Origin: Raillietiella orientalis
Lineage: Eukaryota
Direction of reading: 5' to 3'
NCBI GenBank assembly: GCA_036172245.1
Contig: JAYWIR010000043.1
Coordinates: forward strand, 1,736,001-1,800,000
Length of the DNA: 64,000 nucleotides
In this document: piece after piece, positions 1 to 64,000 of the stretch
How positions within the stretch are numbered: position 1 is the stretch's first letter
How the letters are laid out: the number at the start of each line of letters is the position of its first letter
Program-made: the position numbers and the translations under genes
The notes under the pieces: model-generated
Told to the model about the DNA's origin: nothing
What the model saw: the letters and a program-made list of their open reading frames with translations, nothing else
The model's database searches: none

Positions 1-975
1 TGCACGAAGGCAATCCCTCCTTCCGCCTCGGGCATTGCTATCCCTGGCACGGGGCAAAGGGCGGACAACAAAGAGAAGGTTGGTAAACCCGAATCAGTAA
101 GCCCCTCCCCGTCTGCAGGATCTGGGGAGAAGCATCGGGATGCAAGGCAAGTTCAGGATGTCTTGCGAAGCTGGTCCGGTCCTCACGCTGCCTCCGTCAC
201 ATCCTTACTTCTGACACAGGACTGAGAAGTGCACGCGCATTCGTGGCTGATCTTGTCCGGGGACGCGAAGTGAACGTTCCTCGTTCCGGAGGAGACCTCG
301 GTGCATCAAGAGAGATAGGGAAGGGAGGAGGAGTGGGCGGAGTAGCAGTAAATCCGCTTCTGGACCAGGACAAGTGTGGTCCCAAAAGCTTCCAGATGCG
401 GTGAAACGAAAATATTCCCAGAACCTGTTGACTGAAAGTACAGGAGTGTTTTGCTAAGGCCCTGAGATCTCCTGGGGGAACCTGAAAGACTCACTGGGAT
501 GCCCCTTCACGCTCAGTGTTGCCAGCGGGGGCGATCGCAGCCTTGTGCTGCCTTCGCGGATCCACGGAGGCGAGAAGTTGCGTCTCCAAAGACCAGACAA
601 ACATGGACCCCAGACCCATCGTGTCTTCCTTTCTAAGGATGGCGATGAGATGAACGCACTCCTAGAGCTACAAGGAAGAACTTGCCTGCATCCTCTACAG
701 GATGCTGAGGGCTGCAGGGAGATCACCATGATCCGTTTCTCTTCGCAGTTTTTTCAAAACGAATTTTCGCTTTTTTTTTCTTCCTTTTCTTTTCGTTTTT
801 TCATTTCCCCTTTCTCTCTCTGCGTGCAAACCTTGCTGAGCAATCTGCTTGCTGGAGGAAACGCCTCCCGGACACGCAGCGACCCAGTGAGACTGGTAAT
901 CTCACTGCAAAGGAATGACTTCATCCTGTAATTATTGATTGTTCGTTTGTATGCGATGAATGCCCCAGCGTGACC
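1..975 (+). mobile_element. Decayed 3' portion of an L1/Tx1-like non-LTR retrotransposon (ORF2 C-terminus, T-rich 3' UTR, degenerate terminal motif)
   Basis: Translated fragments SRCGETKIFPEPVD (~392-435, zf-RVT-like) and AALCCLRGS (~537-563) match the C-terminus of the better copy at 5551-7680. T-rich UTR at ~740-820; degenerate terminus GATGAATGCCCCAGCGTGACC at 955-975. Confidence 0.7.
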
Positions 976-999
976 TTCTCATCCTGAAGAGCCTGGCCA

Positions 1000-3900
1000 T
1001 TCATCTAAAATGAATAAATCAAATCGCACAGTCATGGACGGAGAAGAAACTATCTTCACAGGGAACAAAACAAGGGAGGAGTGGAGGGAGAGAAGGGTGA
1101 GGACAATGAATAAATAATTAAACAGGGAAGGGGATGAACCAGACTCACGGTATTCCACTGGGCTTCCGAGGCCCTGCGTCTGGCAGGGAATGGTCGGAAG
1201 GGAGAAGGTGCTCCTCTCATCGGTTTTGGGCTCGTCTGACCACAAGCGTTCTGAGATTCCCTCGTGCCCCACTTCCAAGATTGGGCCATTCCGTCGTCCT
1301 TCACATGTAGCTGTTTCATCCTCCAGTTTAAAAGTCGCCGTTGCTCGTTCATGGCAGAGCATATCCAGCGACAAGGCGATTTCCAGACCAGGAGGCGTGA
1401 TCATGGAACCAAAGTGCCTCAGAGAGGCGTCCCATCCCTGACGCAGCATCCCGCACTTCAGCAGAACGCGCAGGATTCTCCGCCGTACCGCAGTGGGAGC
1501 TCCCCTTGGACGGTCTCCCCGCTGAGACGCGGTGGCGGCGTTCCTTAGTACGAGGAAGTGCCCAGTGCACCAGCAAAATGGCAGACTGCTGGTGCCGGAT
1601 AAGGAGAGGGAGGCGTTGACGAGGAATCACGGGATCTTGATGTTCCCCAGGGGAATCCACATAGATTCCATCCGGGACCCTGAGCTAGAGCTTCTGAAGG
1701 GGCCTCTCTCTCTAGTCGAGAGGTTTTCCATTAACCAGTTGACAGTTCATCTCCCACGCTGCAGAAGCACTCTCTTCCCTCTAATCCCAACGGTGAATTG
1801 AAGGAGGCATGGCCCTCCTCGATGGTCACGCTCTGAATCGGGGGAGCAGGCTAACATAGTCCCTGCAAGGCTGAGTTTCTCCAGACGACTGGTGACGCTG
1901 TTGTTAGGAAGTGGGTTTGGACTTTCCACCCGTAGCCGCGTTCTCAGTAATTCCTGACGCCAAGCATTTTCGTTCCGTGAGGTTGTGCAGTCATGTCCTT
2001 CCATCAGCAGCGCATTCGGGCGAAGTGGGCGATTCTCAGCTCTCTCTCGCTTGCGGTTACGTGAGAGGATAGATGCCAATCCTCTGCAGTTTCTTGCATT
2101 CTTCAGGACGATGAGCGAAGGGAGACTCAAGCTAGTGCTCCACGGTCTTTTCAGGAAGGACAGCCTCTTGGACGATGCCTGCATCTGCAACCGTTCGGCG
2201 GAGGATAAGTTCAGGCTGCCGTGTTGGAGTGGGGAGGACCAAGTCTTTCAGTCGCACCTTGGATATGGAGGACTCTCACAAGGGCGCTCTCCATCAGGCT
2301 GGGAGCGTGACGGCGCACCCAACAGTCTCCGGGATACACAAAAAAAAATTTGGGGGGGTGGAGAGGGGTAGTGGAAACGGAAGAAGAGCGTCGCAAAAAT
2401 GTTCCACTCTTCTGCCCTCTCGGGCAGCAGCAGTTCGCTGTCTTGAAGGGGACCAGGGCACGTTGAAGCTTTCCCAGGTGCGCGGACTATACTTCCCTTG
2501 GGACTTCCCAAGTAAACTAGGGATCCTCCCACGGGAATTCCCAAATGAGGTCAGTCCACGTCCATCACTGAGTCCAAAGCCGTGATTCGCGACTTCTGCC
2601 TGTTCACCTGCACGCCGGCGTCCTCTGCGGATGAACTCGAAGTGTACCAGAGTATCTTTTGTATCAGAGAGGAATTAAGTGAAAATTGATATTTGATATT
2701 CGAATGTTAATGAGTTGAATAAATGTCACGAATGCTCTTGCTGGAATGCGCGTGAGCAGCAGAAGGATCAATTCGTGGGCGTAGGTCACCCCATCAGGCG
2801 TGCCATTGGAGCTGGACGGTAGGCAGGCTGGAGAGTGTGCTAGTACGCGTTCAGCACCGGTTCAAAGAGCAGGCTGATTCAATTCCCAGACCTGACTCTT
2901 CGTGTGACCTTACGCCTCCGGTGAGCGGACCGCCGAAAAAGATCGAGATTTTCGGATTGCACCGCTGCAAGCGCAGGTAGGCGAGGAAGCTGACTGGAGA
3001 GTCGGATCGTTCCAGCGGCTTGGAAAGGAGCTCCTTGTCGGAGTAGTCGACAGCCTTTTCAAGGTCGACTGGCCGTGTTCCCTTCTGGAGTGGAATCCCA
3101 CGTGGACCCTCAGCGGAGATCTTTTTTTTCGAAGCGGCCATGCCTTCTTCTTCCTGAATGAGGTGTCGACGTAGATCAGAATGGCTACCATGGTTTGACC
3201 TGAAATGGCATAGGTCTGCTTCGGGCTGACTATGGATCCATGTTCCCATGCTCTGCACCTTGGACTGCGCGACTCCAGCAGTGAGCAACCCATTCGAGAA
3301 GGAGTGCGCAGTGTTGGTAGAATAAATCCCGCCGACCTCAAACAGCAGCTCCGGCTTATACCCTTTAGAGCCCTGTAGTCCCCTTCTTTCACAATGGCTG
3401 CCAGTGATGGTGCGACAGCCACTGTGCTCTATGGCCTTTCTGTGGTGGAGGTCGATTCCGTGGGGAAACCTCTTCTCCCCGGATTTCCATTGCGGCGTTT
3501 CCCGGCACTGCTGCCTTCCAAGCACCTCCGAATCACCACACGACCCCAACAAAAGCAGAACTCAGCTGACGGAGCACCAACAAAACACGACTGCTCGGTG
3601 GGAACTTCTTCGACGGTTTTGCTTGAGGAGACACCCACTGCTTCGTCCATCGCGGGGCGCACCCGACCTGCACGGTGTTTCAACTCGGATTTACCCGCCT
3701 CAGCAGTCCAAGCGAGACAGCTGGAAAGGCCATGGACCTTTGCTGGCGATCCTTTTCGATTCGTCTGATGAGTAGTATCTTCGTATTTAGATTCCTTTTC
3801 CTGTCTAATATCAGTGGAAGCTGCTTTCCCGTTTTCGAACGGACAAGCGATTCCCAAATAAATCTGAAAAGCAATAAATCTTCTCACGAAATCTTGTCAG

Positions 3901-4900: not shown

Positions 4901-5550
4901 AGCTGCATATCATATAAGCACTGTTTAGCTACTTCAAAGGCTGAATTTTACCTTGCGGGAATGCAGCCCTTGAGGAAACGGTGGCAAAAAAAACGAAAGA
5001 TCCCGACGGGGCATGCCCTCTGGACAAACCTGTTTTCGGGAATCCGAGGATACTGTTCATTGGCTTGGCTACAACGCGCGTAACCCTTCAACAACAAAAG
5101 CAACTTTCCCCCTCTAGACTGCGATTGGCCGCGGGATGCCTGGAACTGTGGTTCCCGGGGAAGCCGAGAGCCCACGGTAACTGCAACAAGACGGGACAAA
5201 CCTGAAGGGAAGGTGTCCTGAAACTAAACGTTCCTTTGCGGGCAGTTGGCACAGATACACCAAAAGAGACACACCGAATTCTGTGCGCCGCGGGGCAAAA
5301 TATAAAGACAAAGAATGTGCTCGCGGAAAGCACCGGTGAATCGAATGCCGACAGCGACCTGCATGGGAGCGAACGAAACTCGATCGCGATACCTCGGCAG
5401 AGGAAGACAAGCTGGGAGGAGCCGACCATGCGGGATGGCAGCTTAAGGTTAACGGAAAAGAAGGAAAAAAAACAAAGGAAAATCCTCGCGCCACCAGGAT
5501 GAAGGGCAGCGGAAGACGCGGATAAGGCCAGGTCAGGTAAGGGGCGTTGC

Positions 5551-7680
5551 CACCCGGATACGCCGGGACGTTTATTAAAACTCGATCTTGGTCAACAGAC
5601 TACGTGGTATGTGGCCCCACTAACGGCCACACAACACCGGACTTGCCGGGACACCGGGACCCAGCCCGGCCTGGCACTCCTCGACAGTGAAAGGGGAAGG
5701 GGGAAAAACAAAATCAAAAATAAAAATAAACAAACAAAAAGAAGTTGGAGGGCAGGGAAGGGATCACTGTTCGCTGAGAGGAGGGCCCATCCTTCGAAGG
5801 AAGCCCTCGAGGTCCATCCGCATTGGTCCCAGATGGGGCCATCCGGCAGCACTCTGCATGAAGCTTACTGCAGGCTGGATCGCATCCCTCTCGTTCGAGT
5901 CTCAATCTTCGTCGTTGGCATCGCTCCAGGCCGCCACGATGCCTCGAACGCAGCATAGTACTGCGAGGGCTGCGGCTGGCTGCAGGGCATCTTGCACGAA
6001 GAGGAGCCAGAAAACGTCTCTGGGCGCGCTGCCCATAGGGAGCCCGAGGGTCGTCCCAACCGTTCCCAAAGGGGTTGGAGGGCAGCACAATCAACGATCA
6101 GGTGGGGAAGCGATTCCCGCTCCCCACACCTGGCACACGCAGGATCCACCGCTCCCCTTGTCCAGTGGAAGCGGCGTGCGTTGCAGGGTAAACCCCAGTG
6201 CAACAGCAGCAACGCCGACTCTTGCCACTTAAGGGGCAGGATCCTGGATTCGTTCATCACCAGGGGCCCCTTCAGCACATCCATCGGGATGGTGAGCAGC
6301 TCTCCCCATCTCTTTAGTCCTCGCGGCTGGGCGCTCGGGGACGTGGCGTCCGCCAGTTGACCCATGGTCCAGCCGCTCATCATCTTCTCGGTGCCTGCGA
6401 TCCGGCAGGAGACTTGCCACCTCGCCGTCCGGCTGCCGTGAAGCGCCCTCCTCAGGAAGGGCATCGCCGTGGCTAGGGGGGTCGTCTCCGCCCAGTTGCA
6501 ACTCGGGGGAAATTGCAGTATTTCCCGCAGAGTGCGGCGGGCGTATATACCAGTGCGCAGACAGTTCCACGATTCGTAACTCCTCCGGTTCAGCTTTGCC
6601 CAGGTGCCAGCAGTCTCCTCCAACCAGGCGGAGGAGTTGGCAGGGCAGCAAACCATCCGGCTGTTCTCCTTCGCCAGGGTTGCCATGCGCCCGAGCAGTA
6701 GGCCGCATCTTCGGATCTTCCGGCCGCGGCACAGAAGAAAAGACGCGAGTCCATCGCACCGAGACACACGGCTGGCGAGGAGGCGGGCCGGAATGCACCA
6801 TGGGGTGCTCCACAGCTTCGATGCAATGGCCATGGTGCGCCATCGCAGCTGAATTTCGACGCGCTTCAGCGTCAGGAGGCTAAGACCGCCGTCCCGACGC
6901 GGAGCGCACAAGTCCTTCAAAGGGGCTCGGGGCCTCCCCTTGCCCCAGAGGGCGATGCGGAAGAGGTCCTTGGTCCTCTTCTTAATTTCCACGGGGACGG
7001 GGCAAACAAAAAGTAGGGGGCGGAGGATGGGGGCCGCGAAGGCGTTCCAAACCGCGGCCCGCTCCGGCAAGTGAAACTTGCCTTCCAGGAACGGGCCGAT
7101 CGCCAACTCCACTTTCTGGAGACGACCTGACCAGGATTCTGTTGGACAGAAGTCCCCCAACGGAACACCCAGGTACTTCAGGTACCTGGCCGTGGGGATC
7201 CCCAAGCGGATCCAGTCAGGCTGTCCTGCCCACGTCGCACCAACTGCCACCACCGACGACATCGCCTTGTAAACCTGCAGTCCGGTCCCGCGGCTAAGCA
7301 GGTCGAAGAAGTCCCCGACTGCCGCTGCCGGGGTGGACCTCGGCAACAAAAGCAGAAGATCGTCAGCATATGCTGCTACGGCGGGCGTGCCGGGGCACGA
7401 GCTCGGCAGGGGAGCCAAAGTCGCCCTGTATGCTCTCAGCACCAACTCGAAGTAGGTGCTAAAGAGCAGGGGACTGAGGCTATGGGCCCTGCAGCATACC
7501 CCGCCGCACCGGCACACCATAAACGTGCTAGCCTCTGAAATAAATGCTGATCAGTGGTTGCGCCAGTAGGAGTACAGATAGGTCGGGAAGATGACCGGGA
7601 AACCCATGTTCTTCAGGAGCTCCAGAAGAAGCTCATGGTCCATTCAGTCGAATACCTTCTGTAGATCGACTGCACTGCAA
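5551..7680 (-). mobile_element. 5'-truncated L1/Tx1-clade non-LTR retrotransposon, best-preserved copy in the window
   Basis: Carries RT motifs, a C-terminal zinc-binding motif, a T-rich 3' UTR (5700-5760) and the terminal AATAAA plus stem-loop at 5551-5576. Confidence 0.9.
5865..7680 (-). pseudogene. Reverse transcriptase / zf-RVT part of LINE ORF2 (551-aa open frame, disrupted at both ends)
   Basis: Motifs in order: VDLQKVFD*MDHELLLELLKNMGFP (7670-7597, premature TGA), SLSPLLF, AYADDLLLL, KYLGVPL, PRRDGGL, LLHWGLPCNARR, CARCGERESLPHLIVDC. A frameshift near 6085 moves the C-terminus (ALAVLCCVRGIVAAW) to another frame. Confidence 0.9.
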
Positions 7681-7919: not shown

Positions 7920-8498
7920 AGGATGGAGCTATAGGTCCAGTTTAGGATGATGGCCTCGATGGCCCAGAACTGGATGAGGCATTGGTGCCTGCCTGCTCTC
8001 GAAATCCTTACGTGCACCTGCTTCTGGAATGCGATGACCCTCGGAATCGCAGCCACTCCACTTCGACCCGAAGATATCCCGAAGAGCTTCTGCGGTGCCG
8101 CTGCTTCAAGCGGGATGGGTATCCGCCTGCCTCCTCGATCACAATCTTCTACTGCATCAGAAGGATCGTGGCATCCCACAAGACGCGGGAGGCGCGCCAG
8201 CCAGGAAAGAAAACCACACGTTTCAATTCCGCAGTGATGTGGAACGTGGCAAAATGCCCTCCGAAGGAGACCGTAATGAAGGAGAACGCCATCTGCATCG
8301 CACGCAGGTTGCAAAAGAAGCGACGATCCCGGTCTCTTCCGCCCTTTTTGTTTATTTATTTATTGTTTCCTTCTTTTTGCTTTTCTTCCTCTTTTTCCCT
8401 CCTTCCTCTGATATCTCTTAGACTAGTAGACTTACTCATCCACATTGCTTGTTTATTTTGCTTTGTTTGGAAAATAAACTCCCCGTAGTAAACAGGTG
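7920..8498 (+). mobile_element. Short 3' fragment of an L1/Tx1-like element
   Basis: Fragments HLLLECDD and FYCIRRIVAS; T-rich UTR at 8340-8410; terminal motif AATAAACTCCCCGTAGTAAACAGGTG at 8473-8498 followed by AAAA. Confidence 0.7.
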
Positions 8499-9809
8499 AA
8501 AATGGTTTGGATAAGTGCTGGCCCAACGAGCCCCACGTAGCGGGGGTTAAAATCCTGCAGAAGAGATGCTATGGTTTTGTTTCCTTTCTTTTACAGGAAG
8601 TCTAGCTAACTGAAATTCGATGTTTTGAATCCTGCTTTGAAAAGCGTGACACAATTAATTGGAGGCTCGTGTGGCTTAGACCAGGGATATCTATTGGGCG
8701 TATCGACTAGGATATCCACCTATGGAGAACCAGGTTGACTTCCAGAACTCCACAAAGAATCATCGCATGCTGGAATAGTAGGATGTTAGGAAATCCCTCT
8801 GCAAGTTGAGTCAAATGAGTCTTCCACGTAATATGTTAGGCGACGCGGAAGTTGTCTGTGATAGAGGAATCGGAAGACCATAAACATTGACCACAGATCA
8901 CTGTTTCTTATGTTGCATCCTCTTCTCAAATGAAGATGGATAAGTTCTCCGATCTGTTAGCTCATGGAGTGAGATCAATTGAAAAATGCATACCTGCATT
9001 ATTCCATTGATCTCAGAAGACCCACCTACTGCCTCCTACATGCTACATTCTTGGACAAAAGAGCGAGATTTTCAAATGCATATTGCAGAACACAACTGAA
9101 TAGGTTTTTCCGACGCAAATTGGCCTTGAGATTCTGCGAGGTTTCTGCATTGCATGTTTCATATCCATTTGTTCTCTTTTTTTTTCTTTGTATGTAGGAA
9201 TTAGGCTATTCAATCGAACAATGAATTGGTTTACCATTGTGAAATGCTTGTCAAGTTGAATGATGGTTGATTTGCTTCCAACCTTGCTGATATCAAGTAA
9301 ATCTATGTTATCACTGAATATATATTCACGAACTGCTCATTTTGGAATCACGGAAAATCCTTAGATTTTGGGAAACTTGCACACTGGATGGAAGCTGAAT
9401 TGGTTCTTAGGAAACAACCATATTTTGCCAAGATGTTAAAGTTGGTATCAACATCAGGAACCTCTGAAGCTACCCAAGGAACCATATGCATCAGATTTAC
9501 CTAATTTATGTGCTTACAGATGATTGAGGTTTTATAATCCTGTTTCCAAAGCATTTCCTGGATCCTAAGATTGTGCTTTACACTTAATGAATCAAGGGAA
9601 CAAAAAACTGATGATACCAAACTATGCTAGGAATTTACTTGCCATTGGATTTACTTTTGGAAACAAGGTAGATAACTTGGCAAAACGTATTGGTCATCTT
9701 ACTAATAATTAATTCATGGTAGATTGATCTTGCACTAGTATGAGGTGGCACTGTTTGTCAAGAAGCCCATGAAGTCTCAACCTGTGACTTGCTGTAGAAC
9801 AGCAACAGG

Positions 9810-31000: not shown

Positions 31001-33527
31001 TAATTGAGTCAATCAGGCATGAAGGCAGGAAACACTAGGAACAAGCGCTCCTATCCCCTCCCCCTCCCCCCCCGAAAAGGAGGTGAAAGAATTACTGTCT
31101 GCTGCCGTTACAACGGCGGGACCCGGATCAGGCTTGCCAGCACTCCCACAAGCTGAGGTCCAAGATGGAGGTCTGCCACGTGGAGTGTTGCGACCGGAAG
31201 GATCGGAGCGAAGACGATTCTCCCCGATGGCGGCAGCTCGGCAACAGCCCAACTCTTCCTTTTTTTTTTTTTTTGGACCCCCGTGAGTAGCAGACGCTCC
31301 TCCTCGCCCGCGAGGGCTCCTATCCTTCCATCTACTTTCCCCATCCCGTCCCTCTTTCGTCCCGGGGGAACATCCGAAAGGTTACTCACGCGAGAATTCC
31401 TGCTGGAAGCGATCACGGCGGCGACCAGACCGAGCTGCGTTACCCCTGCTCCTGCGCAGTGCGCGTGCACTCTGGGAAGAGGGAACGACCTCGGCTCTCC
31501 CTTCCCTGCCGTCCCATTCCCTCCCTTGGAAATTGAATCCGGTCTGTGACGAGGGAGTATCGCTTCTCCGCACCGTCAGAACGCGCCATCTGGAGAAGTC
31601 TTGCGGAGTGTCCGGATGCCCTGCGGACGACGAAGCTCAGGGGACAAAAGAGCAACGCCAGCGAGAAGCCCTACAACCGCGTTTCTCTCTCCGGGGAACC
31701 GGGAAAAAACCTTCTGTCGGAAGAAGTTCGTAGTTACACACACCGGGAGAGTTACACACAACGAGGAGGGAGTGCGATCCCCTACGAGTCCGAGAGACTC
31801 GCGCCTCTGACAGAAGGATAGCTGTCTGTAGCTTGTCAGCCTTAAGTGTCCACACAGCTGGAGGCGGAAGATGCATAGCAGTGGAGGTCTACGGATGTGC
31901 AGGCCACGCGTTTTGGAGGTGTCAATGTCTCCACCCACTCGTCCCCCGTCTCTTCCAGCCTGGACGTTTGGGTGAAAGCACCTCTGTCCAGGTCTCTTCT
32001 CGACTCACCCACTCTTCTCTTCGTTTCGTCCTTACCTCGCCCTAGCTCCAGGTCTTCTCTCTCCGTGGATCGCAGTGGTATCTGCAGTGCATCCTGTCAG
32101 AGCCCCGGAGTGACACGAGCACCTTCTGTCACGCACGCATGTGGGAACACCTGTACCGCGTGCACATGTAAATGCACACATCGCTTCAGGTAATGCGCGC
32201 CGCAACGCATCAACGGTGCTCAAGCACGCGTTGGTTTCACGCCCGAATACTGCGCACTTTACGAAGTCCGGGTGCACTTACGAGCGAACGAGCATCGCTC
32301 ATGGAGTGCGCGTGCGCGCGCACGGAAGTACGAACTTCCCTGTGCATTAGCACAACACTCTCTGCGTCAACACACTGCAGAGCACGCAGCACAAGTGGGA
32401 AAGACCTCGGGCAGAGGCGGGGAGGTGCCATGTATGACGCGCATTATCGGAAGTCGTCCTAGAAACCAGAGAGAGAGCCCACCTGAGGAGATAGCCACGA
32501 GAAGCTTCAGGTGGCCTTCTCTTCAGGTGTGAGAACCAAAGCTGCTTGCCCCATACTATTGGACTACGAGGAAACAACTTACCTCTGGAAGGGCGTAGGG
32601 GCCACCTTTCCTGGCTCCTGAGGGAAGGCAGTCATATGGCGACTGTACGCGTTCCGATGCTTTGTTTTCCGGCTTCCCTCGAAGCATGGGAGGTGCAATC
32701 TAAACTCTTCCATATGACGCAACCTCACGGGAGGGGGAGGAGAGGGGAACCGGGAATGCAAACCGAAGCGCCATCGTTCCGGCTGCGACCAAGCTCAACA
32801 TTTCTTCGGAAGCATTCAGACTCCACGAAGCCCATTCGCGTGCGGGAACTCGGTATTGCAGCATCCTACAGCTTCAGTCGTGGTTGCTGCTCATGTCTCC
32901 ACACCTGAATATTTGAATGCTGGGTAGACGGAAATCACTTTCCAGTGCCTGACTTGCTGCTTCATCGCGTCCATCATCATCCAAAAGTAATACTTGAAGA
33001 AGAGGACCCATTCCCCCCGATTCTCCAAATTTCCATTCCTACGACGAATCAACTTGAATGCATCAGTTATTCCCGAACTGCGAATCAATGGGCAAAAATA
33101 TGCCAGCGCATCTACGCCCATGTTCCCATTTCTTGAGACCAGCCCACCAGCGGAATGAAGTGTGATCGAGCCTTCCCTCCGGAACCCCGGAATTCAGCAC
33201 AGAACAAATGGTCGGAATACGAAAAGGCTCCTTATCCACGCAACTTGTCCTGCATCCTCCGAGCCAATGGAATGTCTGCCCCACCCAGAGGCAAGCAGAC
33301 TCGAAAACACAACCAAATCACAGATGCAGAGAACTCTTATCATTCCTTAGATCAGAAGAGCGAAGCTAGGCGAAAGAGGCAGACTCCTCAGGATCTCTCC
33401 CATGATCCCTGCATTGAGAGGATGCTGTCTCTTCAGCACCGAGAAAATCCTGTCGAAGCCATTGCTCGGCTGCAACGATGGTCAAGTTCCCTCATTCAAA
33501 AAGATGGCGTCTGGAAAGGTGGATTAT

Positions 33528-35000
33528 CACCCGGGTGCGCCGCGGCGTTTATTCAATATAAAAGTAAACAATCATAATCTCTCACGTCCATTTCAAAGCA
33601 AACCTGACCTGCCGCGTTACCGGTTATCAGACTGCTAAGGTCCGCCAGGGCAGCAGACAGAAGGGGGCAAACAAAAAAAAAAGCAAAAAAAAATACTTTG
33701 AAAAATAAATACTTGGAGGGGTGCGAGAAGAAATCACGTCCTGCTGGTGGTGGTCCTCTGCATTCTCTCGAGGATTCCGGCACGTTCTTGTTGCATGGTG
33801 CTCTTCAGGTGGGGCCATCTCGTTGCAATCCTCATGAAGCGGACGACAATCTGGATGGCACACCTCTCGCTCGGTTCTCTTCTTGCGTGGCTCCAGGCCA
33901 CTACAATTCAGCGTAGACAGCAGAGAGCTTCCAGCGAAGCAGCGGGCGGAAGGGCGTCTCGTAGGAGGATGGGTCTTAAACCATCCCTGGAGTTGCCGCT
34001 GTGGGTTGATAGGGTCGCAGAAAAGCATTCCCGAGGGGCTAGAGAGTCGGGAGGGATTCGCGCTACCCACACCTGGCACAGTTTGGGTTCACATCTCCCC
34101 GTGTCCAGTGATGTTGACGGGGGTTGCACGGGAGACCCCAGTGCAGCATCATCAACGCCGACTCCTGCCAACGAGAGTGTGTGTGCAAATCTTCCTCCGG
34201 AATATCCAGCAGCTCGTCCCAGCGCACAAGTCCACGTGGAAGGACACTTGTGATTGCAAAGCTGGTCAGCTGCACCATGGTCGAACCACACACCCTGCGG
34301 GCTGGACCACGAGGTAAGTTCTCGAGTAAGAGCACTCGGGGTCGCAGCATCTTTAAGCTGATCCGTCGTCCACTCTCCCAGTCCTCTTCTCTTGCCTGAG
34401 ATTTCCTTCTTTTGGAAAGATGGAGGTGCTTCCACCGAAGCAGCTACCCTTGGGGCTAGGTATTTTCTTCTCAGGACGCCACTTGGGGAAACTTCTGGCC
34501 ACAGGGCTTCTTGTTTGCACAATACTATTGAGGGAAGGGACCTGATCTTTAGCCTGATTGGATCTGGGAAGACAGAAGCGCCCCCCTCACCTTTACACGG
34601 TTCTTGATGTCACTCGAAAGTGATGGCCACAACATCTCTCTAATCAGCTCAGATGAAGAATTTCTATCCTGGGTGTTACAGAGGGTGTTCCAGCCAGCAA
34701 GGATGTCATGCACCGACTTAACACGAGTAGAGATAGTTCTTGACTGATAGTTCGCATAGCAGCGTGCGCAGAACTCACACCACCGCCGAGGGCCTGGACG
34801 CCTCTCGGGCACGGAACCTCATGAAATCTTACACTGGTTTCTCACTCTGCCTTGACTCGCAGAGAAGGAACTTTCGGAAAAGGAGAGAGCAGAGGGACTT
34901 TCTTATGGAAGGAGCAATATCTAGAGAAAGCAGATACAACAGCATCCTCGGTCCTTGTGAGACTTAAGACAGTGCATAGAAGATGCTTCTTCCTCCTCTT
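33528..35000 (-). mobile_element. 5'-truncated decayed L1/Tx1-like element
   Basis: PRGLVRWDELL...WQESALMMLHWGLPCNPRQHHWTRGDVNPNCARCG (34063-34350); T-rich UTR at ~33660-33715; terminal motif at 33528-33553. Confidence 0.85.
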
Positions 35001-35699: not shown

Positions 35700-36501
35700 A
35701 TGGCAGCAGCCAGACGGTGGAGTGGGAAGTCTCCTGCGAGATCGCAGGCAGGGTGCGTGGTTGGGCCATGGGGCAGCTGAACAATGCTGCGATCACAAGT
35801 GATCACCTTCCACATGGACTTGTGCGCTGGAACGAGCTACTCAGCATTCTCAACGAAGACCTGAAATGGCCACCAGAGTTCATTAACAGCAGCACCTCTC
35901 CCTGGAGTGGCAGGGGATCGGCACTTCTGCTATTGCAATAGTCTTCCCTGCAACTCTCGCCGACACCACTATACACTGGGAAGAGTAAGACTGTCGCAGG
36001 TGCGGAAAACGGGTCTTTCTCTCACCTCCATGTGGACTATGTTGCCCTCCGGTCCATGTGGGAACATTCTGGGACGACCTAAGGACCCCAGCTGACAGTT
36101 CCAAGGACGTTATAAAAGTCCTCTTGCACGCAGGATGCCTTACAACCAGTCGCAGCATTGACAGTAATTTGCTCCATCCGTGGGATTATGGAGGCTTAGA
36201 GCGATGCACAAGGAGGACCGACCTAGACGGCATCCTGGAAAGGATGAAGAGGACATCTTCCAGTGGGTAATGACCCCTTCCGGGCCCTCCAGTCCTTTTT
36301 TTCGTTTTTGTTCCATGAACTTTCTTTTTTGTTTAGTTTGTTTTCCCCCTCCCCCTCCGCTGCCTAGGAGACCCTCGCAGGTCTGCTGCCGCAGACCTGC
36401 GAGGATCAAGTGCTGGCAACCCAGCAGGTCCAAGGACAAACTGAGCGTGGTAGGACCACGTGTCCTACCATAATGTAATAAATGCCTCGGCGTGCCCGGT
36501 G
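35700..36501 (+). mobile_element. 3' fragment of an L1/Tx1-like element
   Basis: GWAMGQLNNAA...PHGLVRWNELL...WQGSALLLL..LPCNSRRHH; T-rich UTR at 36295-36345; terminal motif AATAAATGCCTCGGCGTGCCCGGTG at 36477-36501. Confidence 0.85.
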
Positions 36502-37477
36502 GAAATCGGAAAAGAAATGACGAGTGGCCCCCCTCCTTCGGAGTTTCCCTCGGGAGAGAATAGGGAAGAGATTCCTTCTGGGGTTCCCTTCCAAGAGTAA
36601 GAAAGTCCGGACTCGTTTCTCCAGAACCTTCCTGGATTTTCATGGTGGTTCTTTCTTGGTTTCCCCCTGACTTAGTCACACGCGCCCTTGGGTGGCGTTG
36701 ACGATGTTTTCAAAGCACCCTGTGAGTCCCCATGCGGCGGCATCGTCGAGTCACTCCGATGTCCTCCTAAGGAGGCGGACGATTCTTCGGCCCTCAGAGA
36801 ACCAAAAAAAAGATTTTAGGATGGAAGTCTTTGGCCTCTACAGGAACTCCTCTAATAGCGGATTTCTGCAAACGCAAGGCGACGTACTTTGATGCTACCA
36901 CTCTTCTTCTTCCCTTTTCCTTCTCACACCGGTTGTCTGGCGTCCAATGAACCAAACGAAGCGAAGGGAATGCTCACGTATCTCCTTACAAGGAAGAAAA
37001 AAAACCTAGCGAACAGGAAACTCTTCTGGCAGCCAGGAAATCGTGCCAGTGAGTTTCCTAGGGAACGAGACGTAGCTGATGAAGACAGAAACCATGAAAG
37101 TGCAAAGCAGGAGTTTCGTGATAATCACACTCTATCAAAGATCCTGATGAAGTATGATTTCCAAAGCAGGACCAATCACGAGCTCGGTCTTGCCCACAAA
37201 ACGGCAATGCAAGTGTCCATAAGTCTCTCCCCACGGCTCAAGGAGGAAGTTCGCGATGTGGAAGTAAGTCACTCGCTTTTTCTTCAAGGGAAAATGAGCT
37301 CATGGAAGATTTACGTGATACCTGTGCCAGCGGGCTGGGAAGAATTTGCCTCTCTCTACGAGCCCCTTAGGGAACCCCTGCAAGGAGATGTTCCTGCGAC
37401 CCTTTTGGACAGTCGCAAGAATCCACTCGCTGGTATAACTCGTTGCTGGAAGGAGGGCGGAATGCCAACCGGTTTTC

Positions 37478-38930
37478 CACCTGATTTTGCCGTGGTATTT
37501 ATTATTAAAATAATAATAAGAGACATGTCAACACCAATAGAGTGGTAGAACACTTGGCTCTACCACGTTCTTGGAACTTGTCACGAACAGTATGTAGACC
37601 AGCGAGGACCGTTTCTGCGGCGGGAGGAAGGAATACCTAAAAAAACAGGAGCAAACAAGAAACACAAAAAAGGGGGGAAATGGTTTCTGGGAAGGAGGAG
37701 GCGGAAGAAGGGATCCTATTTCGCAGGGAGACGTCTCTACAACCTGTCCAGGATGCTGACAAGTTCTGTAGTTTTTATCCCAGGTGGGGCCATCTGGAGA
37801 AGGTCTTTAAGAAGATTGTCGCTTGGTGGATGGCATCCTAGACATTCTGGCCTCTTCTTTCCGCGTTTCACTCTGCTGCCACGATTCCACGGGAACAGCA
37901 GAGAACTGCTAAACTGTGCATGACGCGCACAAATAGGCATCGAAAAATGTCATTGAGACCGTCTACTGGGATTCTAGAATCGTCAACAGACGATCCCAGA
38001 AGAGTTAGAGAGCGGCACATTCCAGCAAAAGATGCGAAAAGCTCTCTTTTTCGCTAAGCCAGTCGCATTTGGCGTCCACAATTCCCCGTGTCCAGTGGTG
38101 AAGGCTTGCTTTGCATGGAATCTCCCAATGCAACATCAGCCACGCCAACTCCTGCCACTCTAGGGAGAGGGTGCCACTTTTCCAGCACGCTAGGGGCCAC
38201 TTCATCACCTCCGGAGGGGTTGCGGCAGCTCGCCCCAGCGTAAAAGTCCTTTTGGCGGGACACTCGGGGTCGCAGCTTTTGTGAGTACCGAGCTGCTCGC
38301 GCACTTAGCAGTTTCTTTCTTCCTGCAGTGTAGCAGGACACTTCGCACTTTGCCGCAAGGTAGCTGTCCTTTGCTTCCTTTAAGGAAGGCAGCACTGGGG
38401 CACAAGAGAGGTGAACGATGCCCACAGCAGCTTCCGTGGGTTGCACATGATCACTTGCAGCGACTGTCGAGCGCGTCTTATTTTCCGGAGGCAGGATGGC
38501 GACTAGTAGGGCGAGAAAACCGCGGCAGCTCTAGACCGCACTTCTGCTTCCAATGTAGTCGCTGAGAGTCCTTTCCCTGCGAGGAACATACGGAGAAGGA
38601 CCAGTCCCTCCATTCGACTGCGGAAGATTCGACAGTTCTCTCCCGTTAGGGGAAGAGGACCAGCAACTTCTATTTCCATCATCCTGCTCCACTCAAGCAT
38701 CTCAGAACACAGTCTCTGCATGCTCTCGGCATGTCCACGGCAACCTCCCATGGGCATGCTCCACAAGCCCTCTTCATCCACGACCTGTGGATGTTTCCTC
38801 CGAGTACATGTCGGTGGGGAAGGGGAAGCAGAAAAGACAGGTGCCTGAATTAAAGCTCGGAGCGAATAGTGTTTCCTGAGCAGTCGGGTCGCGAAACCAG
38901 TCTTTGCTTGCAAGAAAGCCAGCTGGCTCC
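37478..38930 (-). mobile_element. 5'-truncated decayed L1/Tx1-like element
   Basis: PKGLLRWGEL, LEWQELAWLMLHWEIPCKASLHHWTRGIVDAKC...ESFSHLLLECAAL; terminal motif AATAAATACCACGGCAAAATCAGGTG at 37478-37503. Confidence 0.8.
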
Positions 38931-51409: not shown

Positions 51410-52783
51410 ACTTTACGGGGAAAATGCTTTAAGTACCTCGGTGTCCCACTGGGCGACTTCTGTACAGGAGAAGAGTGGTCGGACTGGCTTCAAAATGCAG
51501 ACAACGCTCTTGGCCCTTCCCAATAGGTTACAATCTCGTCTTGCCAGAACGGGCGGTTATTTGAAACAACTTCGTGGCCCATCTCTTCCGCCCCCTCTTT
51601 TTGGTTTGTCTGCTTCCTTTCTCGGACAAGCTCCAAGCGCAACTCCTGTTGAGGAACTCTCTGTGAGGACCTGCAAGGTCCAGGATCCGTCTCAAGGACT
51701 TGGAGGCTGCGCTTTGAGATACCCGCTTGAGCATCCTGACGCTGGACAGTATCGTCCTGCAAGTGCAGTTTCAAATGCTACCACTTTGTACCAAGCTTTG
51801 GACGACTCCATGGTGTGCTTTCGCGTGCCTGCTGCTGCGGTGCTGCACCGAAAGCCAAAGTCCGCTTCCGTTGCTGCCGCACTCCCAGCATCCCACAGGA
51901 GGATTTCGCTTCCCGCTGAGACAGATCGTCTCGCCCCTGGAAGCGTATTCGTGGGCCTCCTGCAGCCCGACAAACTTTCACTCGTGGTGGCAGGAGATGC
52001 TCTTGTCCTGGGCAACGCATCAGGAAAGTGCTGCTTATATAGCTTCGTTGCGTGCACTTTTCCCCGCAGGTAGAAGATGTGCTGGAGGACCAGGAAGAAT
52101 GAACTCGCCTGGCCACCACGCTCCCTGCCTCAGCGCTGTCTGCCATCGCTTGCCTTAAGGGCAATTGCCAATCGGCGGAATAGAAGGTCTCCTGCATGCT
52201 TACTGGAGAAACAAGACCCTTGAGGGGCTGGGATACGAGCGAGCTGGTAGACGCTGCCACTCCTAGCAATTGTGTGAAGAGACTCCGTCGATGTAGCTAA
52301 CGAGTGTGCCTCCCGAAGAACTCGTGGTTCTTCCTTCGTGCGTGGACATCTCTGTGTTCCCCATTCGGTAGAAACAGGGCGTGCTCCTGCTGTTGCATTG
52401 GAGTTTCCATTGCAATCAGTGCGTGAACCTAGTTTCCGGGGAGTTGCATCCTCAAACTATGGAAAGTGCGGAGCAGTGGAATCGTTCCTGCTCTTCGACT
52501 GCCGTGCCCTCCAAGGACTGTGGAGGAGGCAGTCTTAGCGCTCCTGCACGAGAAGGACATCGCAATGAAAGTCATGCGCCACTTCACACGTGCCGGACTC
52601 TCGCTGTCAATCGCAACGCTCTGTGGCATCCGCGCCATCGTTATAGACCGCCAACTGTTCAAGTTGGAAACGATTCCCAGAGAGGTCACCATGATTGCAG
52701 ACGCCAACATGAAGACAGCTGCTCGGTGGCCTCATCTTAAAGAAGTCAGGAAGGAGATCTCCGACAGTCAGAGCCGGTTCTGA
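51410..52783 (+). mobile_element. Decayed L1/Tx1-like ORF2 3' half
   Basis: KYLGVPLGDFCTGEEWS.WLQ; LSILTLDSI..Q.Q...KLWTTPWC; LLLHWSFHCN; ATLCGIRAIV...AARWPHLKE..*. Confidence 0.85.
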
Positions 52784-53014
52784 GAAAAAGGGACGGTCGA
52801 TACCAAAGACCCTTTGGTTTGTATTTATTTATTGTTCCCACCCGTTTCGGACATTCAGTGTTCCTGAACTGCGTGTCAGGGAGTCCTCCCTTTGAACTTC
52901 TCTTCCATCTGCCTGGGAACATTGTTCACGGATGGTTTGTTTATTTGGAAATAAACGTTCTGGGGCAACCGGGTAAGAAGCAACACCTCCGATGAGCAGG
53001 TTGTCGAGCTTTGT

Positions 53015-53153
53015 GACCCGGTCACGCCTGGACGTTTATTAAAAAGCCAGTTAGGAGCACCGTTCCCATCCAAGATAACGTAGCCGAGCTCGAGCGGAGC
53101 TCGGGAGGGACTCTGCACCGGCAGCGAGGCTCCGCACGAACGTATGGGGTTGG
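53015..53153 (-). mobile_element. Very short (~140 nt) 3'-UTR-only copy of the element, downstream of another copy
   Basis: Terminal motif AATAAACGTCCAGGCGTGACCGGGTC at 53015-53040. Shares AACG(T/G)ATGGGGTTGGG with the neighbouring UTR (53139-53153 vs 53337-53352). Contains the hairpin CCGAGCTC-GAGCG-GAGCTCGG (53084-53104). Confidence 0.7.
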
Positions 53154-53210
53154 GTTCCTCGTGCATCGCGGGCTGGCGGGGGCGGTGCGTAGCGTTCGGG
53201 CCGATGTTTT

Positions 53211-53976
53211 CACCCGGTCAAGCCGGGGCGTTTATTTAAAAACTAACAGTATTTGCAGTACAAGGCCCCGCTGAGGCCAACAGTTCTATGGAGCTGTCGG
53301 GTGGTCGGTGCACAGACCGACTTAACACTCCACGTCAACGGATGGGGTTGGGGAAAAACAAAAATAAAAAAAATAAAAAGTAGACACACTGGTCATTTGG
53401 AGGGCCGGGAAGGGATCATTGTCCGTTGCGTGGAGCTTCCATCCTTTGCAGGATGCCGACGAGGTCCTGGTACAGATTTCCCAGGTGGGGCCATCGGGAT
53501 GCTATTCGCAGAAAGTGAACTGCATACTCCATGGCATCCCTTCCGTTAACATCGTCTGCTTCGTCGGATCCACTCCAAGCTGCCACAATACCGCGTACGC
53601 AGCAGAGAGCTGCTATTACAGCGGCTGGCTGAAGGGCGTCCCGCACGAAGAGAAGCCGAAAAACTGGGGAGCTACCTTCCAGGATCCCTAAGGTGGAACC
53701 GAAGCGTTCCCACAGGGGCCGGAGGGCAGCACAGTCAACTAAAAGGTGCGGGAGGGTTTCGCGCTCCCCACTACGGGCACAGTTTGGGTTCACACTTCCC
53801 CGTGTCCAGTGATGACGGCGTGCATTGCAGGGGAGTCCCAAGTGCAACAGCATCAGCGCCGACTCCTGCCATTTTAGGGGAAGGATCCTTGTTTGGGTTA
53901 TCACTGGGGACCACTTTAGGTCATCCGATGAGAAAGGGACAGTCAGCCGACTCGCCCTCGAGTGGTCGTGCTCCAT
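53211..53976 (-). mobile_element. Well-preserved 3' fragment of an L1/Tx1-like element (open C-terminal frame 53416-53976)
   Basis: RILPLKWQESALMLLHLGLPCNARRHHWTRGSVNPNCARSGERETLPHLLVDCAALRPLWER...AALCCVRGIVAAW...RWPHL; terminal motif at 53211-53236 followed by AAAA. Confidence 0.92.
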
Positions 53977-60143: not shown

Positions 60144-62731
60144 CAACCTTGTAGGTCGGACGGCAGCCTTGGCCGCCTTCGATGACCATCCTGGCACTGG
60201 GAATTTGGATTGCGGAATGAAAAATGCAAGCAGCGCAGGCGTTTCCATGGTTTCCTTTCTTTACCGATGAACAGCCACAACGAAAGGAGAGGCAGAACCA
60301 ATTTTTCTGGTTTTGCGCGATGCCGATCCTGCCGGCGCCGTTCATTTCTTGCAATTTCCCGATTGCGAGGCCGCAGCAAGCGACATGTTGTCGTGTTGCA
60401 TTTCGATACATTGCTCCCTAGAAAAAACGAATCGTAGGGGATTCCCTGGGGATTTCGGCACGATGTTGCCTGTCGCATACAGTTGCGAAATTTAAAAGGT
60501 CGAAGGAGGGGTTTGAGGGGACAGGATGAAAGGGATGGACTCGCTTTTTGCGTTCTTGCCCTCGATCCCCAAACGCGCAAAAGGGGAAAGATAGGGGCTG
60601 CTCCGCTGTAGAGCTGAGCAAATTTCCTGGAATACGTAATTTGCCTGGATGGGAACCTCTATGCGTATACGGGTGGTTGCTCGAAGGGAGAGAGAATAGA
60701 TGGTCTCACTGAAGCGGTTGCGAGGTGAGGTAGGGGAGATGTGCGGAAATCGAATTTTCTAGGGTTCATGGGTGGCGTTGTGACTTTTCGCAGAACAAGG
60801 GAGCATCGGAGGGCGATGGGAACGTGGTGGATGGATGCGCCACACTCGTAGATACAGGTTTCCAAGAAAATAGGATTAAAGTGTTCCAATTTCGTGGACA
60901 TAATGGATGTGCACTGTAAGAGGTACTGAGGAAAGGGCAGCGTTTTGCGGCTCGTGAGTAGGGTCGGTGTGACCAGGTACATTTGCAGTGTGTCGACAAT
61001 GGAGGTTAACTGAAATCCTCAGCAATTGCGAATGTATTCTTTGGCTACGTGGGCAATCTGAATGCGAGGAAAGTGCGGGCGCTGAGATGGGAAAACTGCA
61101 AGCAAGGAACCCTCCAGCAGGGCGGAGAAGAAAGAGAATTCTCAGCGGCAGTTCTAGTCATTGGCAATCTAGCTGCCTTGGATCGAGCCAATGTAGAAGA
61201 TGTGCTGCATATTGCAGGTAATGCTAAGAAGCACTCGGATAAGGTGTGCCAAATGATTGGGTGCGCTGACGTGCTTCCTACGGCACACGTAGGACACGTA
61301 TGCATCCAACGTCACTGGAGCCTGCGCCACGCACATACAGCCGGGGAAGTCCAGCAGGCTGCTAGCGCCAAGCAAAGCATACGCTGCCGAGGAAGAAACG
61401 TTCCGAAGTGTTACGAACGGCGTCATTGAAAAGAGAAGGAATGGCGATGGAATGTGCAAAGCCGCACTTGGGAAGCGAAGAAAAGTCGGAAAACCTAGGA
61501 AGATGACTTCAAGAATGGTGAACTGCGTACCGGCATATTGACGAAGTCGGTTATTAGATTGCGGTTCCGGAAAAGAGCAAACGTTACCACGAAGGAAGAT
61601 ATTTGAACGGACGTTTGGATAGAGAAGTAGTTGGACGTTGAGGAGTTTGACCAGGAGAAAAAGAAGAGCGCAGCCATGCTCTTGCAGAATGTATGGTAAT
61701 GTGGTCCGTATATTCCAAACCCTCAACACTGGCATCCGAACTACATCCACGTTTAAAAACACATGGAATGCAGGAATGAATGTTCAAGTGGATTGTATGT
61801 TCTTGACGAATGGTTCGAATGCGAGACCTAATACCTTCAATTGAAAAATGCTGAAAATAGTGGAAGTGTTGCCATCTGTTTGCAGGCTCAATTTGCAACC
61901 AGCGACGCAGAACTCTTTCTGCGTTTTCTTGAGGCCGAAGCTGGTGTTTCCTAAATTGAGTCGAGTCAGCACGGTGCGTTCCGGAAAATGCCTTCATTTT
62001 GGAAACACACGTATCTAGTATAGCAGTAACGTACTTTTCCGACTTGTCACATAGGTATTTTGCGGGACATCTACTGCTCCTTCCAGGCGAGAAGAGCACG
62101 TGAGGGCGACTTTGGGCAGCGTCTGCTTCCAGAGGGCGTGCCCTTATCGAGAAAGCAAGAGCAGAACAGCGTAAAGCAAGATTTGACGATGGCAGAGATG
62201 ACCTTCCCTATGGTCGATTGGAAACCGAGAAAGCACGCGTGTAAGATGGACTGCCTGCGTAGTCTAATCAGTGATTGGTGGCATTGAACGTCTCCTGGTT
62301 GCCTGTCGACCCAATGGCAGTATGGCTGATGTTCCGTGAACGATCTTGGATCGTCCTCAACTCGTATGGGTCAGCTATAGCACGACTCCGCTTCCAAGGT
62401 GGAGAACTGCGCAGGGGATGCAACTGTCGTCACATGATTGCAAGGGATGCGGTTGCAAAGCAGCTCGAAAAGCTCAGAAATGAGTGACAGAGAGGAATGG
62501 GGAAATCCGTGGATATTCATGAGAAGCGGACGGCTGTTCCCAAACTAACCATGTTGAAGCAAACCTGTTTTGCGCCGGCACCTTTTTGCAGTTGCAACAA
62601 GGCGATTCTGAGGTGTGACAAGAAAATCCTGCATTCTCTTCCGAAGGGAGGAACATGTGAATGGCAGGGTAGGAGGAGCGCCGTCCGGAGCCCTTGCAAA
62701 GGAGGTCGATTTGCAAGAAGCATTCGATTCT

Positions 62732-64000
62732 CACCCAAGTTTCGCCGTGGCGTTTATTAAAAGATGAACTTTACAAGGACGTGCTGCAGGTGGAGCAGTG
62801 CTCCAGACAGTCACGAAGATAAAAGGAGCCGGCAGGGTGACTGGTTCGAAAAACAGCACGGACCACCACGGCTGCAGGGTAAAGGAGGATAAAGACAAAA
62901 GGAAATAAATAAATTGGGAGGGCGCGGGAAAAAGGCACAGTTGATGCTAGGACCGCTGCATCCTTCGCAGGATGTCGGCAAGCTCTTTCTGCATTCCATG
63001 ATAAAGGTGAGGCCATGTGTACTCCTTGAAAAATTGGGCAGCGTGCTGGATGTCAACCTGATCGCGAGTGCCACCCGTTGCCTTGCTGCAAGCGGCGACG
63101 ATCCCGCGAAGGCAGCACAGGGCTGCTGACAAGGCCATATGCGGAAGGGTGTCCGCAACGAAGAGGGCTTTCAACACGTACCTGGGGTTGCCGCAGGGGA
63201 TTGCGATGACTACCGCCAAGCGTAACCAAAGAGGCCGGGGGGCAACACAATCGAGTAAGAAAAGGGGGAGAATCTTTCGTGCCCTGCAGCTAAGACAGTT
63301 GCGATCGTCCGCTGCCCAGGTCCTGTGGTGCTCGCGGGAGTTGCAAAGGAGTCCCCAATGCTGCAAAAGAAGATCCAACCCCTTCCTTTTTGAAAAGGAG
63401 GGTGGAAGTGTTGCTTAGCACCGGTGGCCACTTCAGATATTCAATGGGAACATGGAGCAGAGCCCCCCAGCAGAGAAGTCCATTGGGAGGCGTTCTCGGG
63501 GTCGCAGCGTCTGTTAACTGGCGCGTCTTCCACACTGCCTGCTTCTTCTCCTTGGCGGACATGGCTGCCTTGACCTCCCACTTCGCCGAAACATGGCTGT
63601 CCTATTCTTCCACATGAGAGGGCAACACAGAAGCGAGGGGGTTTCTTCCTGACCACGCTCTCTTCTTCGGCTCCTCCAGGGTCGTGCAACTTCTGCAGCA
63701 CCCAAACAGGAACCTTCGTTCCTGCTGGGCGCGTTGCATGCTGCACTGTGCACACATGGGGAGGGTTACCTGCAACCAGGCACTACCATTCGCGGGTCGA
63801 CAAGTGATCCATGTGTGACTTTTCCGAACCAAGGCTGCCACCCTCCGCAGCTGGAGCCTACATCTCTTGATGCGGCAGCGATGGAGTGAAACAAATTGCG
63901 TGAATCCCGTTTCCTTGGTGGCTTTCTTGACCAGGAGACGTGGAGGATTGCTCCAGGAGCTGCACCACAACTCCGGCACAACGGCCAACTTCGGGAACTG
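62732..64000 (-). mobile_element. Decayed L1/Tx1-like element running off the window end
   Basis: QLTDAATP..PNGLLCWGALL; LLQHWGLLCNSREHHRTW...NCLSC...FLLDCVAPRPLW...AALCCLRGIVAA...WPHL; terminal motif AATAAACGCCACGGCGAAACTTGGGTG at 62732-62758. Confidence 0.88.

Follow-up and report, generated by a model that had tools for sequence, protein, structure and literature searches.

A precise, tail-less 3′ terminus shared by eleven decayed copies of an L1-like retrotransposon in one 64-kb window suggests recognition of a specific RNA end

L1 elements are the textbook example of "relaxed" template choice among long interspersed nuclear elements (LINEs): the template is chosen by its poly(A), and hence L1 also copies short interspersed nuclear elements (SINEs) and mRNAs into processed pseudogenes. 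Poly(A)-primed insertion of the L1 type yields A tails of variable length. In R2 and the SART1/R1-clade elements, which are site-specific and belong to other clades, the 3′ untranslated region (UTR) sets a precise start of reverse transcription. Here we analyze the 3′ ends of an L1-like element in a 64,000-nucleotide stretch of Raillietiella orientalis contig JAYWIR010000043.1 (the whole stretch is called the window below). The data set consists of 11 old copies, all within this one window. A sequence-only reading of the same DNA had proposed a structured 3′ recognition element at these ends, setting L1 elements that use poly(A) against L2/CR1 elements that use a stem-loop. This contrast is too simple, since stringent lineages of the L1 clade have been published (PMC3472496).

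The stringent mode has been described in the L1 clade for the monocot LINE1-1_ZM group, together with ZmSINE2 and ZmSINE3, and for L1-1_CR of Chlamydomonas (Ohshima, 2012; PMC3472496). In these plant and algal elements the last ~45 nt have a divergence of 0.144, compared with 0.570 elsewhere in the element, and a 3′ repeat is lacking in 9 of 233 plant and 5 of 15 algal L1 families (PMC3472496). The concept is therefore already published for plant and algal L1-clade LINEs. In the L2 clade, sections of two reports describe how the ORF2 protein (ORF2p) of eel UnaL2 and of zebrafish ZfL2-1 and ZfL2-2 recognizes the 3′ stem-loop of its own element (PMC4176376, PMC1636434). SART1, which is also stringent, additionally needs its poly(A), as cited in PMC3472496. 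For human L1, a bulged stem-loop in the 3′ UTR has been proposed in the sections drawn on here of Grechishnikova and Poptsova, 2016 (PMC5135761). In the open-access full text, a coverage that leaves out Repbase reports and most subscription journals, we found no description of the box reported below or of a stringent animal L1/Tx1 lineage.

The copies in the window end in a common layout: the hexamer AATAAA is followed by a GC-rich box of ~20 nt ending in GGTG, and then by exactly four bases, R-N-A-A. The nine sites listed by the sequence-only reading are all present at their coordinates and strands; two more had been missed, and the total is 11 termini, ten complete and one truncated:

5547..5576, minus strand: terminus of copy c5576, with AATAAA, GC box, GGTG and GCAA; covariance-model E=6e-7
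8473..8502, plus strand: terminus of c8473, the most decayed, AT-rich copy, with a 3′ region at ~8238-8504
33524..33553, minus strand: terminus of c33553, found by pattern and covariance model
36477..36505, plus strand: terminus of c36477, with a 1-nt deletion in the box; found by the covariance model
37474..37503, minus strand: terminus of c37503, found by pattern and covariance model
52950..52979, plus strand: terminus of c52950, an addition to the first list; model E=6e-6
53011..53040, minus strand: terminus of c53040, a 5′-truncated, UTR-only copy at ~53011-53165
53207..53236, minus strand: terminus of c53236, the top match to the model, E=3e-8
62728..62758, minus strand: terminus of c62758, with a 1-nt insertion in the box; found by the covariance model
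955..975, plus strand: truncated terminus of c955, with hexamer GATGAA and the box cut after ...GTGACC; 3′ region at 626-975
976..1005, minus strand: degenerate terminus of c976m, GATGAA...GATG AGAA, an addition to the first list; model E=9e-5

Searching the window for AATAAA-N16-GGTG with at most 1 mismatch gave 15 matches, where 4.1 were expected (standard deviation 2.1) and none of 100 shuffles reached 15; seven of these matches are element termini. This fixed spacing misses the copies at 36477 and 62732, each with a 1-nt indel, and the truncated copy at 955. The ten complete termini were used to build a covariance model, which, run over the whole window with filters off, recovered its ten termini (E from 3e-8 to 3e-4) and no further terminus (next best match, E=1.1), nor any solo box without an upstream UTR. 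Leave-one-out nhmmer profiles of the 3′ region, covering ORF2 end and UTR, still find c8473 (E=2.9e-8) and c955 (E=1.9e-15).

What follows GGTG is equally regular. The ten complete copies continue with GCAA, AAAA, ATAA, GAAA, GAAA, ACAA, AAAA, AGAA, AGAA and AGAA, so that +1 is a purine, +3 an A and +4 an A in 10/10. From +5 onward the columns look random, with A making up 43 of the 200 letters (21.5%) at +5 to +24. The longest run of A after GGTG is four and a variable poly(A) tail is found in no copy (10/10); the earlier observation that at most about 4 A follow was thus true and even understated the case. The nine non-A letters are confined to +1 and +2, with +3 and +4 free of them (probability (1/2)^9, ~0.002). 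We therefore rejected the idea that R-N-A-A is a decayed run of four A. The copies lack a poly(A) tail and stop at one fixed position.

The box is part of the element. In line with the sequence-only reading, the motif is element-borne: it is co-oriented with ORF2 remnants at a fixed distance and its flanks are unrelated from +5. The same reading had described a motif conserved while the UTR diverges, and in the alignment of the 3′ regions (A1) the box is indeed the best-conserved block of the last ~350 nt, sliding pairwise identity being 0.52-0.57 in the terminal block, compared with 0.07-0.33 in mid-UTR and 0.42-0.50 where the C-terminus of ORF2 is encoded. Among the ten complete termini, pairwise identity is 0.67 over hexamer, box and RNAA against 0.42 over the 10 nt before the hexamer. 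That the upstream UTRs do not align is true in part: blastn gives no UTR-UTR match, yet the 3′ regions have a common architecture, and nhmmer finds c8473 and c955. The common order is ORF2 end, T-rich tract, C-rich box, variable middle, U-rich spacer, hexamer and GC box. Self-blastn of the copies yields 8 alignable pieces only, all coding and of 63-85% identity. With so few alignable pieces, all of them coding, and with differing flanks, the copies represent separate insertion events of lineages that have diverged.

Further upstream, the 3′ UTR has another conserved feature. After the ORF2 stop, every copy has a T-rich tract of 30-60 nt and then a C-rich box (CCCCnCCCC.TCCGCTG-like), for example at 5690-5860(-), 53340-53400(-) and 36260-36340(+).

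Ten termini sit ~220-300 nt 3′ of co-oriented ORF2 C-terminal remnants. These were located by tblastn with the 561-amino-acid (aa) open reading frame (ORF) at 5868-7550(-) as query, and for c8473 and c955 by nhmmer across the ORF2 end, bearing out the claim that the copies lie downstream of ORF2 remnants in the same orientation. The copy called UTR-only is so: leave-one-out nhmmer and direct alignment agree that the copy at 53011-53040(-) aligns solely from the C-rich UTR box on (~155 nt), and an apparent ORF2 C-terminal remnant at this copy was dismissed by the same two methods as an alignment artefact. The window copies are 5′-truncated and decayed. An exhaustive search of 1.84 billion representative proteins gave 75 matches to the window ORF2 at E<=1e-3; one of them, P0001, is close (62% identical), and the other 74 reach at most ~35%. 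The remnants are:

5868..7550, minus strand: ORF2 remnant belonging to c5576; the open frame of 561 aa contains YADD and, at its C-terminus, CX2CX7HX4C, and resemblance to P0001 continues as far as 7673
33847..34308, minus strand: ORF2 C-terminal remnant of c33553, broken by stop codons
35687..36073, plus strand: ORF2 C-terminal remnant of c36477
37987..38634, minus strand: ORF2 C-terminal remnant of c37503, in which 38008-38304 match zf-RVT weakly (E=3.2e-5, short of the Pfam cut-off)
51419..52529, plus strand: ORF2 remnant of c52950
53520..53946, minus strand: ORF2 C-terminal remnant of c53236, sharing 67% identity with c5576 across 94 aa
63214..63988, minus strand: ORF2 remnant of c62758, continuing towards the window edge
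~1379-3150, minus strand: ORF2 remnant of c976m, matched at 1379-2822 by tblastn with the 561-aa ORF

Further reverse transcriptase (RT) fragments of the same or related families, found by tblastn with the 561-aa ORF and P0001, lie at 49365-50283(-), 54625-54918(+) and 62155-62553(+), with no detectable terminus nearby.

The same box at the end of eleven decayed copies suggests that the element's enzyme recognizes a specific RNA end. A conserved, element-borne and precise tail-less end fits specific 3′ recognition or initiation rather than priming based on poly(A), and the motif is best read as the 3′ terminus that several lineages of an L1-superclade non-LTR (long terminal repeat) retrotransposon have kept in common while diverging. 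Taken with the upstream hairpins described below, the shared box, the precise end and the missing tail are read as the signature of a stringent LINE. We put at about 0.55 the probability that these copies carry a bipartite, "stringent-type" 3′ tail by which reverse transcription starts at a precise point independently of poly(A). The first part of such a tail would be a lineage-specific perfect hairpin of 6-10 bp, and the second would comprise the U-rich spacer, AAUAAA, the 20-nt GC box ending in GGUG, and R-N-A-A. AAUAAA, probably a real poly(A) signal, would direct cleavage ~24 nt downstream, at the element end. ORF2p would bind the hairpin, the GC box or both ("stringent" recognition), and this binding would set the first templated base of target-primed reverse transcription, with little or no poly(A) being copied. 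R-N-A-A could then represent the last templated RNA bases or, alternatively, the nick-site footprint of the endonuclease (TTNY on the primer strand).

When the terminal 130 nt of the copies were folded individually, long perfect hairpins emerged 30-110 nt upstream of the hexamer. We compared the longest perfect stem (loop of 3-10 nt) with 1000 dinucleotide shuffles per copy, and did the same for four control blocks from the same copies. For the 110 nt before the hexamer the combined Fisher p is 2.5e-5, with 5/11 copies at p<0.05 (controls 0.59, 0.69, 0.16 and 0.13); for 80 nt without the U-rich spacer it is 5.3e-6, with 4/11 copies at p<0.05 (controls 0.78, 0.43, 0.16 and 0.041). The terminal 130 nt also fold with a mean z of -1.57, compared with -0.19, -0.30, -0.80 and -0.83 in upstream blocks. 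In five copies the upstream hairpin (HP-B) is a perfect one of 6-10 bp ending 31-47 nt before the hexamer, with stem sequences that are unrelated; the last two entries below are hairpins of a sixth copy, c36477:

5608..5633, minus strand: HP-B of c5576, 9-bp stem ending 31 nt before the hexamer, -15.2 kcal/mol
37542..37566, minus strand: HP-B of c37503, 10-bp stem ending 38 nt before the hexamer
53084..53104, minus strand: HP-B of c53040, 8-bp stem ending 43 nt before the hexamer
62791..62805, minus strand: HP-B of c62758, 6-bp stem ending 33 nt before the hexamer
885..907, plus strand: HP-B of c955, 8-bp stem ending 47 nt before the hexamer
36447..36471, plus strand: HP-B of c36477, the 10-bp homologue of the c37503 hairpin, 5 nt before the hexamer
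36373..36404, plus strand: a further UTR hairpin of c36477, 14-bp perfect stem, -29.1 kcal/mol

In the homologous pair of c36477 and c37503, all 20 of 20 cells pair while the flanks have diverged, with one double change from G-C to A-U, two wobble-compatible single changes and none that is disruptive; these are two sequences only, and 243 of 500 shuffles do as well. Perfect stems of 9-11 bp also occur in the coding block of the ORF2 zinc finger, at ~6050-6130(-), ~35960-36040(+) and ~1500-1600(-).

HP-B is a better structural candidate than the hairpin originally proposed, in which the box itself folds as 4 bp, a bulge and 3 bp around a 5-nt loop and this mini-hairpin is what the RT recognizes. 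We consider such recognition unlikely. Its stem is paired in register in 82.9% of cells, compared with 25-52% after the 3′ partner has been shifted 1-3 columns, a control biased by the fact that the structure was derived from the consensus; when 3′ partners are shuffled in the ten-copy alignment, pairing is 81.8% and 200 of 500 shuffles are as high. Covariation is not in excess either (the score is 0.267 against 0.240, and 129 of 500 shuffles reach the observed value), a double change being seen at one pair where 1.2 are expected. The three best-preserved copies do fold at -8.5 to -8.9 kcal/mol, and in the stem columns C>T changes, by which a G-U pair is retained, number 10 against 5 G>A (binomial ~0.06, not significant). 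On the other side, the RNAalifold consensus energy is weak at -1.68 kcal/mol, single-copy z-scores run from -2.2 to +0.7 (9/10 within -1.2 to +0.7 and 7/10 within 0.7 of zero), and the minimum free energy structures of the copies at 37478, 53015 and 955 lack the hairpin. The G-C to T-A swap reported at the loop-closing pair of the copy at 8473 is real, with the adjacent pair of that copy broken. Variation had been described as concentrated at bulge and loop; the bulge and loop columns 27-29 are indeed the most variable (majority letter in 5-6 of 10), and stem column 19 is just as variable. The mini-hairpin is thus possible, with neither covariation nor stability in its favor, and it is the sequence that is conserved. 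From the proposal of a structured 3′ recognition element we accordingly retain a specific, tail-less, conserved element as likely, and not the fold inside the box.

The main rival, doubtful and of a different kind, is that the box is kept for 3′-end formation, as a poly(A) signal with a fixed cleavage context replacing the downstream element, and that priming at the first A's of the tail leaves short tails. The hexamer is the most invariant part of the terminus (4/6 positions identical in 10/10 complete copies), it directly follows a U-rich stretch, and the element ends 24 nt past it, which is canonical cleavage geometry. Two copies have GATGAA and still keep the box, although their hexamers may simply be decayed. 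Constraint on the box would also be unusual in this position, the sequence between poly(A) signal and cleavage site being, to our knowledge, normally unconstrained. The stop lies at the same position in 10/10 copies and +1/+2 are often non-A. Processing of the 3′ end thus explains the hexamer and the spacing and leaves the fixed tail-less junction unexplained.

A role for the box in the DNA itself, such as a CpG-rich site for protein binding or an antisense promoter element, is quite improbable: the box does hold 4 CpGs in 20 nt, is near-palindromic (CCCGG...CCGGG) and shows CpG transitions in only 9 of 51 differences from the majority, but its strict position at the end of an RNA-derived copy and the precise end are better explained at the RNA level. 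An origin of the motif in host target sequence, or in some other repeat that the LINE enters specifically, is very unlikely even though parts of PMC4494074 describe Tx1-clade relatives as often target-specific and copies in the window cluster (tail-to-tail junctions 0 and 31 bp apart, and another gap of 41 bp), because the motif always lies on the element side, after a hexamer and U-rich spacer that align with the UTR, no solo box exists in the window, and the ten 3′ flanks have nothing in common past R-N-A-A, 11 copies being too few to judge target specificity.

The clustering itself takes two forms. The box of c955(+) is interrupted precisely at the end of c976m(-), making a tail-to-tail junction of 0 bp; c52950(+) and c53040(-) form a second one with 31 bp between their ends, and 41 bp separate the end of c53236(-) from the 5′ end of c53040(-), which lies downstream. 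Such adjacency may be chance in a LINE-rich block, or the element may preferentially insert at older 3′ ends or close to them. A search upstream of c976m for the GGGTG-RNAA end that c955 lacks gave nothing convincing. These two copies also share the hexamer GATGAA (955-960(+) and 1000-1005(-)) in place of the AATAAA of the other nine, the rest of their UTRs being unrelated; a variant of a subfamily, local conversion or coincidence may account for this.

Several observations weigh against the bipartite stringent tail. All 11 copies are old and 5′-truncated or broken, and conservation of the box could equally serve 3′-end processing. Target-site duplications, sought as exact k-mers of at least 9 nt from the 3′ flank within 7 kb upstream, were not found, the search giving only three 9-mers with no evident meaning. 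The hairpin enrichment rests mainly on 4-5 copies, of which c36477 and c37503 are homologous and not independent; HP-B is absent or weak in c33553, c8473, c976m and c52950, and the coding control block d reaches a Fisher p of 0.041 with 3/10 copies at p<0.05. The covariance model detected no SINE or non-autonomous partner with the same tail in this one 64-kb window. Searched outside the window, the terminus pattern AATAAAYNYCNCGGCNNNNCCGGGTG gave 0 loci in viral contigs, 5 in prokaryote genomes and 23 in metagenomes, and no related copy among them: we discarded the 28 loci as chance matches that look bacterial, have no A's after GGTG and show no ORF2 similarity by tblastn. The ORF2 C-terminal alignment, used as a protein pattern against metagenomes, gave 101 matches, none of which was confirmed. 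An apurinic/apyrimidinic-type endonuclease (APE) has not been seen in the family itself: Pfam found no RVT_1 and no Exo_endo_phos in the 413 window ORFs of at least 70 aa, and P0001 matches RVT_1 (4.7e-24) and no other domain.

The family is placed in the L1 superclade (L1/Tx1), with an L1-like ORF2, on the similarity of its RT. In the PDB, a set lacking RTs of the CR1, RTE and I clades, P0001 matches residues 395-773 of human L1 ORF2p at 7e-40, with R2 proteins far below (1.5e-11 to 7e-17). The CX2CX7HX4C after the RT can be read directly in the 561-aa ORF as the CCHC feature; Pfam gave only two zf-RVT matches in the window, at 3.2e-5 and 8.6e-3, both below cut-off. Distant full-length relatives (at most 31% identity) that combine Exo_endo_phos, RVT_1 and zf-RVT come from ticks, lizards, frogs, plants and fungi. 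Of nine distant relatives scanned, seven have a zf-RVT, the nine aligning to the C-terminal region, and six an Exo_endo_phos (APE), which most members of a second set also carry, and an APE endonuclease is predicted from distant relatives only. A word-index search for longer protein relatives and a PDB search with the 561-aa ORF each returned none, and protein databases contain essentially no sample of the ORF2 family. P0001 itself stems from a 2870-bp environmental metagenome contig, and a Tx1-named Atlas cluster is a weak look-alike of it, scoring 0.88, below the 0.9 lead threshold.

The closest counterparts of the window element are LINE1-1_ZM and L1-1_CR. They share with it an L1-clade ORF2 and a 3′ end far better conserved than the remainder (here 0.52-0.67 against 0.07-0.33), as well as a hairpin of variable stem upstream of a conserved 3′ flank (PMC3472496). 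They differ in that they end in poly(A), whereas the window copies end precisely at GGTG-RNAA, in having plant and algal hosts rather than an invertebrate-type animal, in having known SINE partners with the same tail, where this window has none, and in their conserved letters, CGAG and UCU (PMC3472496). The L2-clade elements ZfL2 and UnaL2 belong to another clade, terminate in tandem repeats of short units, for instance (TGTAA)n, and have an experimentally shown function, compared with a proposed one here; in the portion of PMC4176376 considered, close relatives discriminate their own stem-loops, which matches a lineage-specific HP-B beside a common box. Human L1, of the relaxed type, provides the nearest solved RT to P0001 and likewise has a 3′ poly(A) signal and a proposed bulged stem-loop near its 3′ end, the last point according to part of its source. 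Unlike the window element it has long poly(A) tails, mobilizes poly(A) RNAs in trans and has no conserved box between signal and RNA end. The Tx1 clade resembles the family in consisting of animal L1-superclade elements, and the window copies cluster and abut; as portions of PMC4494074 put it, the clade is defined by RT phylogeny and often by target specificity, and the crocodilian SINEs thought to be mobilized by Tx1-Mar end in poly(A).

The window is eukaryotic, with an intron-split alpha-L-fucosidase gene at 21137-28041(-) (GH29 and its C-terminal domain) and pieces of chromatin assembly factor 1 subunit A (CAF-1 p150) at 42867-44710(-). Because the fucosidase exon tops out at 80-82% identity to invertebrate proteins (for example of leech and shrimp), the host, judged by these genes, looks like an invertebrate animal without close representation in the protein collection. 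LINE-rich blocks (1-8, 24-40 and 48-64 kb) contrast sharply in GC content with the rest of the window (~50-58% against 32-41%), and the termini fall within GC-rich blocks of 52-58% GC. Rfam at its gathering threshold gave 0 matches across the window, and a histone-type 3′ stem-loop, left without a match there, was dropped.

The present analysis offers a well-documented sequence pattern in one window, for which a mechanism is proposed. In its full form, the proposal is that a lineage of the animal L1/Tx1 superclade retrotransposes without poly(A), its ORF2p reading a lineage-specific hairpin as identity element together with a universal terminal GC box placed between poly(A) signal and RNA end, and starting the cDNA at one fixed base; we hold this tentatively, with the odds somewhat against it. 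If true, stringent recognition would occur in animal, plant and algal L1-clade elements alike, which would support the published hypothesis of a stringent ancestral L1, with the poly(A) mode of mammals as the derived state. Few processed pseudogenes would then be expected from the L1-like family of the window, and its compact 3′ tail of ~100 nt would serve for studying how an L1-like ORF2p picks its template and the first templated base.

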